Assembly: GCA_050250575.1 (NCBI GenBank)
Contig: JBFWOJ010000018.1
Location: forward strand, 5,816-69,815
Source of the DNA: Rhodospirillaceae bacterium
GTDB lineage: Bacteria > Pseudomonadota > Alphaproteobacteria > Rhodospirillales > Rhodospirillaceae
Direction: 5' to 3'
Length of the DNA stretch: 64,000 bases
In this document: positions 35,509 to 52,919 of the stretch, piece after piece
Numbering within the stretch: position 1 is the first letter of the stretch
Layout: each line of letters starts with the position of its first letter
Notes under the pieces: generated by a model
What the model was told of the DNA's origin: nothing
Seen by the model: the letters and a program-made list of their open reading frames with translations, nothing else
The model's database searches: none
Program-made: the position numbers and the translations under genes

Positions 35509-35584
35509 GCCCAGGTAGCTCAGTTGGTAGAGCAAGGGACTGAAAATCCCTGTGTCGCTGGTTCGATTCCGGCCCTGGGCACCA
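35509..35584 (+). tRNA. tRNA-Phe (anticodon GAA)
   Basis: The acceptor stem GCCCAGG pairs with CCTGGGC. The D-loop is AGCTCAGTTGGTAGAGC, the anticodon loop is CTGAAAA and the T-arm is GGTTCGATTCC. CCA is encoded. Confidence 0.95.
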
Positions 35585-35586
35585 TT
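35570..35586 (+). repeat. attL core (direct repeat copy 1)
   Basis: CGGCCCTGGGCACCATT, which overlaps the 3' end of tRNA-Phe. Confidence 0.75.
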
Positions 35587-35699
35587 TCTCCTTTCCGCAG
35601 TCGTCCGTAGTCGTTCGCCGACGTCGAACTTAGCCAATAAAACCGGGCCTTTCTGCGTTCGCAGTTACCCGCCCACGTTGGTGGGCAGCCGGACGACTT

Positions 35700-35812
35700 G
35701 TTGGTATTGCCGTTGGTATCGGACGCAGTGTCCGAAATCGATACCAACAGACTCCCTGTTTCGGAGTCATACCCGCGACGGAGAAGACGGGTGTTGGTAC
35801 GGCGCTACCAAC
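35700..35812. repeat. GTTGGTA heptamer cluster between attL and int (candidate arm-type / operator sites)
   Basis: GTTGGTA occurs at 35700, 35712 and 35793, and TACCAAC at 35742 and 35806. The pair at 35712-35721 and 35739-35748 forms a 10-bp inverted repeat. The pair at 35793-35812 forms GTTGGTA-cggcgc-TACCAAC. Confidence 0.5.
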
Positions 35813-35832
35813 ATACCACGAGGTCGCAGGAA

Positions 35833-49780: not shown

Positions 49781-50569
49781 ATGACGAAGCAGAAAACCGC
49801 GCACCGTGCGTCGGGAAGCCGAACGGAGCGCGCAGGGAAATCCGGCCCGGGGATCGCGCTGGATGCCGTCGCGTCCGTACTCGCGCAGAAGGAGGTGCCG
49901 CGCAGCGACATCCAGCTTCTCGCGGAGCTTCACACTGACGGCAAAGCATGGATTATAGATGTCGCTCCATGCGCAGACGGGCCGGTGTACCGGGTTGCCA
50001 AGAAGGACGTCATCGTCGGTCAGTCAAAAATGACCACTTGCACGGACGGCCGGCAGAAAAAGATCCATCACATCACTGTCCGCGGCGACGCCGATGGCAT
50101 GCGCTGGCAGGCCGGAAAAGCGCGCGATCTATTTGGCCTGGATCCTCTTGGTATGCGGCCGCCGCAGTACGTCCGTATCGCTTTCACCTCGAGCGGCGAA
50201 GGTACGCTCACCTATGGTGGGACGTCAGTCCCTTGTTTGGGACGGCCGGGATTCGGCTACCGGAAGGATCTGACGATCACTGGTGTCGTGGGCATCGACA
50301 AATTTAGGGAACGATGGAGCACCGAATACGGGGTGATGATGGAGTGGGCCGTGCTCATCATGGGCCAGCGCGGAATCTATGTGCACCTGGGGGCGGACAC
50401 CATCGCAACAAATTACAACCAACCGAGCGCGGGATGCATTCATCTCGCCGGTGCAAACGCCAGCAGGTTTTACGACTGGATTACGGGGACGACGCGCTTT
50501 GAGATCAGCTGTCCCTGGGCTGTTCCAGGCAGAAAGGATGTTTCCCCGTTTGTCGAACTTCAGTCGTGA
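49781..50569 (+). CDS. YkuD (L,D-transpeptidase)-fold domain protein, no signal peptide
   Basis: AGGAGAG lies 7 nt upstream of the start codon. The C-terminal motif is IYVHLG-x13-SAGCIHLAGANASRFYDWI. This compares with the canonical H-x-G...S-x-GC-[IV]-R-[LM]. Confidence 0.7.
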   Translation: MTKQKTAHRASGSRTERAGKSGPGIALDAVASVLAQKEVPRSDIQLLAELHTDGKAWIIDVAPCADGPVYRVAKKDVIVGQSKMTTCTDGRQKKIHHITVRGDADGMRWQAGKARDLFGLDPLGMRPPQYVRIAFTSSGEGTLTYGGTSVPCLGRPGFGYRKDLTITGVVGIDKFRERWSTEYGVMMEWAVLIMGQRGIYVHLGADTIATNYNQPSAGCIHLAGANASRFYDWITGTTRFEISCPWAVPGRKDVSPFVELQS

Positions 50570-50629
50570 CACGCAACAGGCGGGCGATTCCACATATGTA
50601 ACTAGATAGTCATTGGCGGAAGAAGTGAG

Positions 50630-52366
50630 ATGCCGTTCGACATCAATCGATTCGTATTAAACGCGAAGCGCCAGCTGGAAGAGCTTCGTCAGCGCAAAAA
50701 CGGCGATCTAGAAGCGCATATGCATCTACAAGAGTCCGTCAAAGACGGGATTCGGATAATTCTTGAAGTAAAGGAGAGATCCGACGGCCCTGGCCTAAAG
50801 GACCGATTCCTGGCGCGACTCCGGCCGGACTTTCTACATGAAATCACGCCTCTTTTTAGGGGAGCTGCGGACGAGCCGTCAAGGACTCCGCACTTTGATC
50901 TCGCGAAGTTTTGGTTGCTCAGGATTTTCGATGTTAGTTCGTTCGTGCCTGGGGGAAATCTCTTTGACTTGGCTCATGAGCTTCGACAGCAATTGGATCT
51001 GCATTCAGCCGAGCCCGATTTGCCTTATGAAGACAATGAAGCTGTCGAAATTGGTAGTCGCTCACGCGTATTGACCACAGCCATTGCAGACCGCGCATGG
51101 TCACTTAGGACCATGCGCGTTCCCGAGGCTTGGAAGTACTCCCTCCAAAATGCCGGTCTCACTCCTCAGGGAAGCGGGATTGTGATCGGACATCCTGACA
51201 CCGGTTATACGGTGCATGACGATCTCGATGCGGCGCGCTTGCTCATTTCGAAGGGCTACGACTTTATCGACAACAAGTGGGACCCTTTAGACCCGTTGAC
51301 CTATAAAGGGTCACCGGGGCACGGAACGGCGACGGGCAGTGTCATCATGAGTGGCGGCGGAGTGACGCCCGCTCCGATATCGGGGGGTGGGACGACCCCG
51401 CCCGGAGAAGTGACGGGTGTCGCTCCTCAAGCAGGATTGATCCCGATAAGGACCGCGAAATTCGTCGCGTGGATATTTTCGAGCCATATTGCTCAGGCCA
51501 TACACTTCGCCCGCCAGTGTAATTGCCACGTCATCTCGATCAGTATGGGTGGTACGCCCCTGCGAGCCTTGCATGCCGCAATTTACGACGCCGTCGCCGA
51601 TGGCATCGTTGTTGTCGCAGCTGCAGGAAATGAGGTTCGTACGGTTGTATATCCCGCCAGATACCCGGAATGCATCGCTTTAGCTGCGACCAACTATAAG
51701 GACATTCCGTGGCGGAGATCTTCGAGAGGCAAAGCAATTGATGTGTCGGCGCCCGGCGAACAGGTCTGGCGTGCAATCAAAAGGCGGCCTACGGACAGCA
51801 ACACAGGAGTCGGACCAAGCAATGGTACGTCATATGCGGCGGCAAACGCCGCCGGGGTAGCTGCACTATGGTTATCGCATCACGGTGCCGACGGTTTGCG
51901 GCGCGCTGCCGGCTCGAGCCTCCAAGAAACATTTCGGATGGCGCTGCGGACATCTGCGCGCGTGCCACCTGCATGGAACGCGTCGAAGTTCGGTGCCGGA
52001 ATTATTGATGCGCATGCGCTGCTTGCACTTCCAGTACCTCCAACAGGTATTACGTCTCCATTCACTTCCGATCTGGACGAGACAGCTAGTCTTCTAGAGC
52101 CGCTTGACGAAGAGGTTGCAAAGGCAATGCTTGCGCAGTCCATCGGAGTGCCGCGAATTCAACTTGAACAGACTCTCGGTCCTTGGCTCGGCGAAATAGC
52201 CCACATCTTCTTTACGCTGAACGTTGAAGAGGATCCGTCGTTTCAGATGTTGACCACGCATTCTCTGTCCACCGTCGATATTGGGGCAAGCCAATTGCGG
52301 GCGTTGCTTGAAAGACACGGTTCGGAATCTCTTTTAGGATGGCTAGTGGCCAGGAAAAAGCCGTAG
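50630..52366 (+). CDS. S8 (subtilisin-family) serine peptidase, no signal peptide
   Basis: The catalytic residues are Asp in VIGHPDTG (D190), His in GHGTATG (H231), Asn in AAAGNE (N333) and Ser in NGTSYAAANAAG (S401). A ~160-aa N-terminal region contains LFDLAHEL...AEPDLPYE. Confidence 0.9.
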   Translation: MPFDINRFVLNAKRQLEELRQRKNGDLEAHMHLQESVKDGIRIILEVKERSDGPGLKDRFLARLRPDFLHEITPLFRGAADEPSRTPHFDLAKFWLLRIFDVSSFVPGGNLFDLAHELRQQLDLHSAEPDLPYEDNEAVEIGSRSRVLTTAIADRAWSLRTMRVPEAWKYSLQNAGLTPQGSGIVIGHPDTGYTVHDDLDAARLLISKGYDFIDNKWDPLDPLTYKGSPGHGTATGSVIMSGGGVTPAPISGGGTTPPGEVTGVAPQAGLIPIRTAKFVAWIFSSHIAQAIHFARQCNCHVISISMGGTPLRALHAAIYDAVADGIVVVAAAGNEVRTVVYPARYPECIALAATNYKDIPWRRSSRGKAIDVSAPGEQVWRAIKRRPTDSNTGVGPSNGTSYAAANAAGVAALWLSHHGADGLRRAAGSSLQETFRMALRTSARVPPAWNASKFGAGIIDAHALLALPVPPTGITSPFTSDLDETASLLEPLDEEVAKAMLAQSIGVPRIQLEQTLGPWLGEIAHIFFTLNVEEDPSFQMLTTHSLSTVDIGASQLRALLERHGSESLLGWLVARKKP

Positions 52367-52902
52367 ATCTCAAGGCCGATGTAGTCGCCGGAGAAACCGG
52401 GTAAAGTGGCACGATGGGGATCGCCACCGGGAAATGCATGCGCTTGCAGCTGCTGAAAGAGTGAGTTCAGGTTGTTAGGCGCAGGGGTGCAGGCCCGTGG
52501 CGGACCTACCCTCTCCGCCACACTTAAACTGCCGGACGCATTCGCGCAAAGTAACGAATTTCGTCACGTTGGGAGAATGAAACGCATCAGATCTATTTCC
52601 CGCGCAGGGCGCACTCCGTGCAGTCGCGTTCGCAGCGTCCCTGAGAGATGACGATTGGTGCTGGCGGTGATAATTTTGCGCCTGCCGACGCAAGTCGGCG
52701 AGTGGGATGAAGGCCAGGTGCTTTTCGCACAAAAATAATTTTTGTCGGTACAACTTCCGCGTGGTGTGATGTTGGTACGAATAAGGCAGTCCGTGGTCGT
52801 CCGTCAGCAGTCTCTCAATTCGAGGGTAGGAGAGTTGGTGCCTCTTGAGTTCGGGAAAAATTGCGCATTAAAAATCAAACGCTTAGAGGCCGAATGTGAT
52901 GA

Positions 52903-52919
52903 CGGCCCTGGGCACCATT
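52903..52919 (+). repeat. attR core (direct repeat copy 2)
   Basis: CGGCCCTGGGCACCATT, identical to 35570-35586. Confidence 0.75.

Follow-up and report, generated by a model that had tools for sequence, protein, structure and literature searches.

A structurally intact 17.3-kb island at tRNA-Phe of a Rhodospirillaceae bacterium and its pair of giant cargo proteins

In a 64-kb stretch of contig JBFWOJ010000018.1 of a Rhodospirillaceae bacterium, which was analyzed at its full length and is referred to below as the window, the 3′ end of a tRNA-Phe gene recurs exactly at a distance, and an integrase gene lies next to the first of the two copies. What kind of element is located between the copies, can it still move, and what does it carry? 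A preliminary description of the locus presented it as an apparently intact integrative island that is recent or still excisable. According to our analysis, positions 35570-52919 are very likely a 17.3-kb non-conjugative integrative genomic island at tRNA-Phe. The island is real, structurally intact and bounded by attL and attR, and it is an ordinary example of the known P4/IntS-type islands in phe-tRNA genes. The unusual part of the locus, a point that the preliminary description missed, is the cargo and not the module composed of the att sites and the integrase. Only five open reading frames (ORFs) are present in the island, those of the integrase (int) and of four proteins referred to as A, B, C and D, and all five are intact and co-directional.

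The tRNA-Phe target and the att repeats

The sole tRNA gene in the window is an intact tRNA-Phe (GAA) gene located at 35509-35584 on the + strand (predicted by ARAGORN and matched by Rfam RF00005 with 72.4 bits); it is the integration target, with attB in its 3′ end. The attL core, the 17-mer CGGCCCTGGGCACCATT at 35570-35586 (+ strand), consists of the final 15 nucleotides of the tRNA, CCA included, followed by TT, while a second exact copy, the attR core, is located at 52903-52919 (+ strand) outside any tRNA gene. The repeat had been reported before as the last 15 nt of tRNA-Phe plus 2 nt, and both ARAGORN and exact matching bear this out.

The occurrences of the 17-mer were counted over the 64-kb window. 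Exact copies are present only at attL and attR, and no further ones appeared when up to two mismatches were allowed, the number of matches expected by chance being 0.01; the concern, raised in the preliminary description, that the 17-mer may be frequent elsewhere thus finds no support in the window. When three mismatches were allowed, a single additional match was obtained, which is unrelated and located on the opposite strand at 16157. Extending the repeat leaves 20 out of 22 bases the same (35565-35586 compared to 52898-52919). Since a 25-nt probe that reaches further into the 3′ half of the tRNA matches the real tRNA gene alone, the attR copy is an att remnant rather than a second tRNA. A search of the window for additional, degenerate copies of this 3′ end, as tandem or older islands would leave them, found none.

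Integrase and arm-type sites

The int gene (35833-37038, + strand) codes for a P4/CP4-57/IntS-type tyrosine integrase of 401 amino acids that is recognized by Pfam, NCBIfam and PHROG. Its three Pfam domains, Arm-DNA-bind_3, Phage_int_M and Phage_integrase, all score above the gathering score; the NCBIfam match is PRK09692 (E=7e-64), the PHROG match is PHROG 1 (integrase), and the N-terminus matches the solved arm-binding domains of CP4-like integrases (PDB 3ju0 and 3jtz). The catalytic set R...K...HxxR...H...Y was found to be complete when the translation was read by eye. The closest integrases in the plasmid collection are ca. 45-54% identical to the island enzyme. We confirm that the gene is full length and contains no frameshift, being open throughout, and that its ATG at 35833 starts 247 nt from the end of attL at 35586.

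A repeated GTTGGTA sequence was first spotted by reading the arms of the island, and the published consensus of IntS arm-type sites, TGKTGGTATC, was then scanned as an independent check. The motif scan revealed a cluster of five arm-type sites between attL and int (35699-35813), located at 35699-35708 (+), 35711-35720 (+), 35740-35749 (−), 35792-35801 (+) and 35804-35813 (−). A sixth site, TGTTGGTACG (52770-52779), is found in the attR arm, ca. 130 bp inside attR. One of the six, at 35740-35749, matches the consensus perfectly and is the lone perfect match in the window; three sites match in 9 out of 10 positions, and the remaining two, at 35792-35801 and in the attR arm, in 8 out of 10. Of the nine window matches that deviate from the consensus at one position or not at all, four are located in the 35699-35813 cluster. 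Likewise, all five occurrences of GTTGGTAY in the window are in the arms of the island (four between attL and int, one on the attR side), while 0.87 occurrences are expected. The right arm (52367-52902, 536 bp) is non-coding, with no credible ORF and no Rfam match, and also holds an A/T-rich tract (52733-52745) and a GTCGTCCGT motif common to the attL arm. The island integrase therefore probably bridges the core to these putative TGTTGGTAYC-like arm sites.

In ICEMlSymR7A, the symbiosis island of Mesorhizobium and an integrative and conjugative element (ICE) of the ICESym family, the core site of the integrase IntS is the 17-bp 3′ end of a phe-tRNA gene (PMC5882170), the intS gene is located directly downstream of attL, and a 283-bp attP contains five arm-type sites with the consensus TGKTGGTATC (PMC11963761). 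Judged by its anatomy, with a 17-bp phe-tRNA core, the integrase gene beside attL and arm-type sites on either side, the integration module of the island belongs to the IntS/attPS type. The island integrase would have recombined the 17-bp core of attP with its exact counterpart at the end of tRNA-Phe in the host, an event that would restore the tRNA at attL and leave the second copy of the core at attR. The direction and timing of this insertion are what we infer from the present arrangement, as is the dependence on a helper that is discussed below.

The tRNA-Phe locus in related genomes

The preliminary description proposed a comparison with the tRNA-Phe locus of related genomes. Using the RNase G-like gene just upstream of the tRNA as an anchor, we recovered five metagenome-assembled genomes of Rhodospirillaceae-like bacteria (L003 to L007; 74-81% amino-acid identity). 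The tRNA and the upstream gene order (791-aa gene, GT2, RNase G, tRNA-Phe) are kept in all five, and the similarity of the window to them ends at 35586-35624, i.e., at the 3′ end of the tRNA. The int, A, B, C and D genes, as well as the genes located to the right of attR, are absent from every one of these relatives, and in none of them does an integrase gene adjoin tRNA-Phe. The DNA that follows the tRNA codes for malate synthase and a transporter in L003, for enzymes of ribosomally synthesized and post-translationally modified peptides in L004, for an ATPase and nitrate reductase in L005 and L006, and for other mobile-type genes in L007. Since the content behind the tRNA differs from one relative to another and the island genes are missing from all of them, synteny breaks at tRNA-Phe within this clade, and the island is specific to its lineage.

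Several further observations were made at these loci. In L004, ca. 2.8 kb (9690-12475) separate RNase G from tRNA-Phe, compared to ca. 375 bp in the window and in the other relatives; this extra DNA upstream of the tRNA looks like a separate insertion. A 2,670-aa ORF seemingly common to L005 and L006 was rejected as a tblastx artefact of near-identical DNA, and a second “tRNA-Phe” of 95 nt predicted in L007 by ARAGORN (18087-18181) was rejected as a false positive inside a GC-rich coding sequence. No match was returned when the protein of the GT2 gene upstream in the window was looked up by its exact sequence.

In the host genes upstream, the G+C content of third codon positions (GC3) amounts to 0.80-0.86, and in the genes of the island to 0.56-0.75, a composition that is foreign to the host. 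Within the island it is mosaic: int has a GC3 of 0.65, A and B have values of 0.72-0.75, and D has 0.56.

Three results weigh against the interpretation of the locus as an island inserted into an otherwise ordinary tRNA-Phe site. First, the DNA that forms the right flank, from 52920 onward, is also foreign and not common to the relatives. Second, the exact empty attB site with this right flank was not found among the relatives, which follows from the flank being foreign and unshared; for the same reason, an insertion into a naive site is something that we infer. Third, the predicted attB junction, GATTCCGGCCCTGGGCACCATTCTTTCTATGTCC, and the pattern composed of the core and the left end of the island, which should match attL or attP (predicted attP junction, GATGACGGCCCTGGGCACCATTTCTCCTTTCC), had no exact matches in public metagenome contigs. 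The search for a circular attP junction or an empty attB that the preliminary description had suggested thus came back empty in these contigs, and since neither was found, neither excision nor the exact state before insertion has been observed.

State of the island and its mobility

Apart from the window itself, copies of the island were found only in the Logan assemblies SRR27751815 and SRR27751816, which are from the same strain and contain contigs 100% identical to the window. One of these contigs (L016) crosses attR into the flank, so the assemblies show the integrated form. The Logan contigs (L015-L018) end at 35732, inside the arm-site cluster of attL, and at ca. 53040-53065, inside a transposase fragment. 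The latter break is probably induced by a repeat. The breaks were rejected as evidence of excision, since they are not located at the position where attL and attP would be expected to branch.

No relaxase, coupling protein, type IV secretion or other conjugation genes, replication genes or phage genes were detected among the island ORFs with Pfam, PADLOC, NCBIfam and PHROGs. Scans with Pfam, NCBIfam and PHROG models also revealed no recombination directionality factor (RDF) or excisionase of the Xis, AlpA, Vis or RdfS kind in these ORFs, although very small or novel RDFs could escape such scans, and no plausible small ORF is present in the non-coding arms. An ICE was consequently rejected, as none of the five ORFs has a relaxase, coupling protein or type IV secretion domain. 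A P4-like satellite or phage-inducible chromosomal island was rejected as well: there is no primase-helicase (alpha), sid, psu, delta or equivalent gene, and the PHROG matches are limited to the integrase and a protease.

The most likely state of the island, judging from these absences and from the behavior of the IntS system, would be that of an integration-proficient, helper-dependent element. In ICEMlSymR7A, attP and intS suffice for integration, efficient excision requires RdfS (PMC11963761), and the excision products attP and attB are undetectable without RdfS (PMC5882170). The dependence on a helper follows from this behavior taken together with the absence of RDF, relaxase and transfer genes from the island. 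Efficient excision and transfer would require helpers acting in trans, for instance an RdfS-like RDF together with the transfer apparatus that an ICE in the same cell could provide, or a phage. In this respect the island seems to resemble a natural counterpart of the “mini-ICEs” constructed in the laboratory, and it would belong to the recognised class of integrase-only islands at tRNA/tmRNA sites whose movement depends on other elements (PMC12595487). Of the two alternatives offered in the preliminary description, “recent” agrees with the perfect repeats and intact genes; “still excisable” is not supported, the searches having found neither an RDF nor an attB or attP junction.

It is rather unlikely that the island is an autonomous element that is currently excising, driven by its integrase, either alone or aided by a small RDF whose gene in the arms escaped recognition. 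The perfect 17-bp cores, the intact integrase, the arm sites on both arms and the intact cargo would all suit such an element, and overexpression of intS alone was reported to cause a moderate rise in the excision of an ICEMlSymR7A mini-ICE (PMC11963761). However, no ORF similar to Xis, AlpA or RdfS was found in the island, no attB or attP junction was present in public metagenome contigs, both independent assemblies of the strain contain the integrated form, and attP and attB products of the IntS system are undetectable when RdfS is missing (PMC5882170).

We consider it somewhat less probable still that the island is a deletion remnant of a larger IntS-type ICE, similar to cis-mobilizable elements, that lost its conjugation, regulation and RDF modules and is now effectively fixed. 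Such an origin would agree with an att/int module of a type known from large ICEs (PMC5882170, PMC11963761), with the mosaic GC3 values of int, A and B, and D, and with int being the only mobility gene. Against it speak the absence of fragments of type IV secretion, relaxase or rdfS pseudogenes between the genes, the short intergenic gaps (285, 1, 21 and 60 bp) and the lack of an ORF in the 536-bp right arm; moreover, islands consisting of an integrase and cargo without transfer genes at tRNA or tmRNA genes are a recognised and widespread class (PMC12595487). A coincidental repeat or an assembly artefact in an ordinary chromosomal region, for which nothing speaks except the shortness of the repeat, is refuted by the chance expectation of 0.01, by the coincidence of the repeat with a tRNA 3′ end, a neighboring integrase gene, clustered arm sites, a change in composition and a synteny breakpoint, and by two independent Logan assemblies that are 100% identical through the island and across attR.

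The giant cargo proteins A and B

Between int and the first cargo gene there is a 285-bp non-coding gap (37039-37323), in which neither an Rfam match nor a match to a promoter-like consensus was found; for this reason, no promoter or regulation could be assigned to the 15-kb string of cargo genes. Gene A (37324-44814, + strand) codes for a giant protein of 2496 aa (2472 aa if the start is at 37396), and its GC3 of 0.75 supports a real coding sequence. Gene B (44816-49759, + strand) starts 1 nt past the A stop codon and codes for a giant partner of 1647 aa that has no signal peptide or transmembrane segment. In A, an N-terminal twin-arginine translocation (Tat) signal is followed by a conserved core (ca. 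450-1120) with many invariant residues, for which no relative was found, a Gly/Pro linker, an Ala-rich helical region of ca. 800 aa whose length varies between homologs, and a C-terminal beta-meander (ca. 2110-2440).

Neither A nor B has a match in Pfam, PADLOC, NCBIfam, PHROGs or PDB sequences. A profile of full-length A searched against PDB sequences retrieved compositional matches to helical bundles only, and a nine-member B profile had no matches in PDB or Pfam. Three further proteins of the A family and eight of the B family have no Pfam domain either, and no description of the A family was found in the literature, searches by protein accession included.

The impression, given by a word-index search (four and one non-self relatives), that A and B are nearly unique was rejected as a sensitivity artefact: when a profile built from the C-terminal domain of A was used in a full HMMER search, it retrieved 3,452 clusters (50% identity), of which 2,035 have E≤1e-30. 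A further word-index search with a 40-sequence profile brought little gain. Members of the A family are nearly all 2,100-3,260 aa long, with the domain at the C-terminus. Those with names come mainly from Alphaproteobacteria, form clusters of one to three sequences and are all annotated as “hypothetical protein” (Mesorhizobium, Bradyrhizobium, Phenylobacterium). The domain is absent from the 2.9 million viral contigs of IMG/VR.

A B-like ORF (ca. 1260-1970 aa, no known domain) directly follows the A-like gene at each of the nine other distinct loci examined, among which are plasmids of S. meliloti and A. vitis; in the A. vitis locus the B-like ORF is annotated in two pieces. Seven B-like proteins that were compared directly are mutually homologous, with 22-30% identity. 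The A-B pair is part of a large, dark and undescribed family of giant protein pairs, and it is possibly a novel cargo.

The C-terminal domain of A was modelled with AlphaFold2. A 5-sequence alignment gave an unusable model, with a predicted local distance difference test (pLDDT) score of 46, and a 40-sequence alignment, which gave a pLDDT of 85.6, was used instead. In the model, a helical lead-in precedes a long antiparallel beta-meander of amphipathic strands. In the protein, ca. 60 charged tail residues come after the domain, and the terminal aromatic residue of a barrel beta-signal is absent. The top fold matches, weak ones, are porins, LptD, ushers and autotransporter barrels (TM 0.13-0.26, E 4e-4 or weaker); these barrel-like matches were set aside as too weak to use.

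The Tat signal of A

The N-terminus of A carries a twin-arginine signal, SRRAFVGG...FAAAAP (MSRRAFVGGAGASVVLGPEVFAAAAP), which agrees with the pattern of Tat substrates, i.e., an S/T-R-R-x-F-L/V motif, then a hydrophobic stretch and a cleavage site of the A-x-A type. The Tat motif is present in all four close homologs of A, and a strict version of it was found in 62 of the 107 full-length members of the family, compared to 6 of 1070 control windows. Export of complexes in which only one partner has a signal is known as Tat hitch-hiking (PMC10924467). The A-B pair is similar in that A carries a consensus twin-arginine signal while the tightly linked B has none; it differs in size, A being ca. 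270 kDa and B ca. 180 kDa, and export of a complex of the two would be a putative case.

In a contig of Rhizobium ruizarguesonis (JBGMEQ010000039.1), a gene for a 64-aa protein of the TatA/B/E family (25699-25893 of locus L002) comes immediately behind A-B. Its product, an additional subunit of the Tat pore, may serve specifically for the export of the adjoining 3,263-aa protein, which carries a Tat signal.

Accessory genes and neighborhoods of A-B pairs

In the island, the A-B pair is followed by genes C and D. Gene C (49781-50569, + strand) codes for a 262-aa protein with a C-terminal His...Cys motif (SAGCIHL) that is similar to that of YkuD (L,D-transpeptidase); it was recognized in the translation and by Pfam, where the YkuD match is borderline (E=1e-4, 23.3 bits with a cut-off of 23.4). 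Gene D (50630-52366, + strand) codes for an S8 subtilase of 578 aa (Pfam Peptidase_S8, E=2e-30) with an intact Asp-His-Ser triad (HPDTG, GHGT, GTSYA) and an N-terminal extension of ca. 170 aa without assigned function. A mycosin-like NCBIfam match of D is below the cut-off. In PADLOC-DB 2.0 there is no match for A, B or C and only a generic “subtilase” model for D (E=1e-8).

The accessory genes vary between A-B loci. They are YkuD-like and S8 genes here, and genes for astacin, a lysozyme-like protein, DUF7689 or TatA elsewhere. Accessory genes of ca. 262 aa at different A-B loci were considered as a common family, which was rejected since they are not homologous. At two loci (L025, 20674-21639, and L026, 15342-16307), an astacin metalloprotease gene is located after A-B in place of S8, and a Prok-E2/ThiF and JAB pair is located upstream; the A protein of these loci, P0013, is the closest one by C-terminal domain, with 58% identity.

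Genes found next to A-B pairs include Dpd genes, DNA methylases, WYL and PD-(D/E)XK genes, toxin-antitoxin pairs, AAA_15/21 (OLD-like) ATPases, Prok-E2/JAB genes and integrases. Conjugative plasmids of cultured strains carry A-B pairs as well, namely a plasmid of A. vitis CG957 (L024, CP146243.1) and the accessoryA plasmid of S. meliloti HM006 (L023). The plasmid pairs adjoin either dpdE-H, which belong to a defence system based on 7-deazaguanine DNA modification, or N6-methylase, WYL and PD-(D/E)XK genes.

Possible role of the cargo

We tentatively suggest that A and B form the core of a widespread, undescribed envelope system that is targeted by Tat and acts as a conflict module with interchangeable accessories, carried by plasmids, defence islands and minimal integrase islands. 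In such a system, A (2,100-3,260 aa across the family) would be targeted to the cell envelope via Tat, possibly with B (1,500-2,000 aa) as a passenger that has no signal of its own or with B acting on A. A variable accessory protease or peptidoglycan enzyme would process or anchor A, and the outcome would be an envelope-associated apparatus for conflict, i.e., for phage exclusion or for antagonism between bacteria. The signal, the accessories and the mobile and defence neighbors point to this conflict or surface role, which we propose with low confidence.

Four observations speak against this proposal. A Tat substrate of ca. 270 kDa would be unusually large; both A and B are far larger than known Tat substrates. 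A Foldseek search of the domain model against PDB and BFVD produced no significant match. Library scans revealed no recognisable catalytic or sensing domain in A or B. Finally, C and D lack signal peptides, which is a poor fit to processing in the periplasm.

It is also possible, if doubtful, that A-B, with or without C and D, is an anti-phage or anti-competitor conflict system spread by the island, which would then be a small “defence element” at a tRNA/tmRNA hotspot. The company that A-B pairs keep (Dpd, methylases, WYL/PD-(D/E)XK, toxin-antitoxin, ATPases, Prok-E2/JAB and integrases), the great diversity and patchy distribution of the A family in clusters of one to three sequences, and the existence of a known class of integrase-only islands with defence cargo (PMC12595487) are consistent with such a function. 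On the other hand, no PADLOC model matches A, B or C, nothing recognisable as a nuclease, an NTPase or another sensing domain is present, and guilt by association is weak evidence; the absence of the A domain from viral contigs speaks neither for nor against a role in defence. Assignment to a known defence system was rejected on domain content.

The ABC (Tc) toxins are similar to A-B in the sizes and order of genes only (ca. 2,500 aa, then ca. 1,600 aa, as TcA is followed by TcB/TcC). This candidate was rejected, since no VRP1/TcA, SpvB or RHS domains were found with Pfam and NCBIfam and there is no sequence similarity to PDB entries; moreover, Tc toxins are not known to be Tat substrates.

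If A is indeed exported by Tat, it would be by far the largest Tat cargo known and would challenge the assumed size limits of the pathway, and if the A-B pair proposed here as an envelope system is a conflict system, it would be a new one. Cultured carriers, i.e., S. meliloti HM006, A. vitis CG957 and isolates of Mesorhizobium and Bradyrhizobium, make the questions of export and conflict testable.

DNA to the right of attR

The DNA next to attR (52920-57424) is foreign and decayed, has a GC content of 0.57 and contains many short ORFs without a Pfam match, along with a truncated rve_3 transposase ORF (52981-53445, − strand) and a gene for a MarR regulator (56235-56768, − strand). To the right of attR, GC3 is 0.61-0.65. 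Region 52920-57424 probably represents the remains of older insertions at the tRNA-Phe hotspot, with no degenerate copy of the tRNA-Phe 3′ end to mark where they end. A tandem pair of 20-nt repeats (CCGGAGACATGGGTAACACC / ...GTGACACC) with a spacing of 25 nt is found at 52935-52979, 16 nt outside attR, where it abuts the transposase fragment; it may be the end of an insertion sequence or a binding site. Two short stretches of the flank (54462-54699 compared to 60831-61044) are 84-90% identical to parts of otsB (trehalose phosphatase) and look like a pseudogene fragment in the decayed region.

Further to the right, 57425-61586 is occupied by a cluster of MscS-like channel, OtsA and OtsB genes. 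This osmoprotection cluster looks horizontally acquired, since its GC3 (0.61-0.65) is below that of the host core genes (0.80-0.86). The OtsA ORF is 741 aa long, and its GT20 domain covers residues 251-716 only, preceded by an N-terminal extension of ca. 250 aa.

Comparison with known island systems

Islands with a P4/CP4-57-type integrase at tRNA genes include the pheV and pheU pathogenicity islands of enterobacteria. The tRNA-Phe island shares with P4/CP4-57 islands an integrase composed of Arm-DNA-bind_3, SAM-like and catalytic domains, insertion into a tRNA 3′ end with short repeats, and int as the first gene; its cargo, however, is unrelated, and it has no P4 replication or satellite genes.

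The IntY “hitcher” elements of Pseudomonas use a tmRNA site, have a jumbo phage as the helper and carry alpA at the far end (PMC12595487). Like the island described here, they have a short repeat derived from the 3′ end of a small-RNA gene, a terminal tyrosine integrase, uncharacterised or defence-type cargo and no genes for autonomous transfer (PMC12595487), whereas in the island no alpA or other RDF was found, the target is tRNA-Phe rather than tmRNA, and there is no known helper.

With ICEMlSymR7A, the island has in common the target in the 3′ end of a phe-tRNA gene, a 17-bp core repeated at attL and attR, an int gene just downstream of attL, arm sites similar to TGKTGGTATC and an alphaproteobacterial host. 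The two differ in size (502 kb and 17.3 kb, respectively) and in host, that of the island being a Rhodospirillaceae-like uncultured bacterium and not Mesorhizobium; in addition, rdfS and the relaxase, type IV secretion, quorum-sensing and symbiosis genes are lacking in the island. The island thus adds a minimal, cargo-only module of the IntS type at phe-tRNA outside rhizobia, and it suggests that such modules circulate apart from large ICEs, which bears on the reuse of modules and on helper-dependent mobility.

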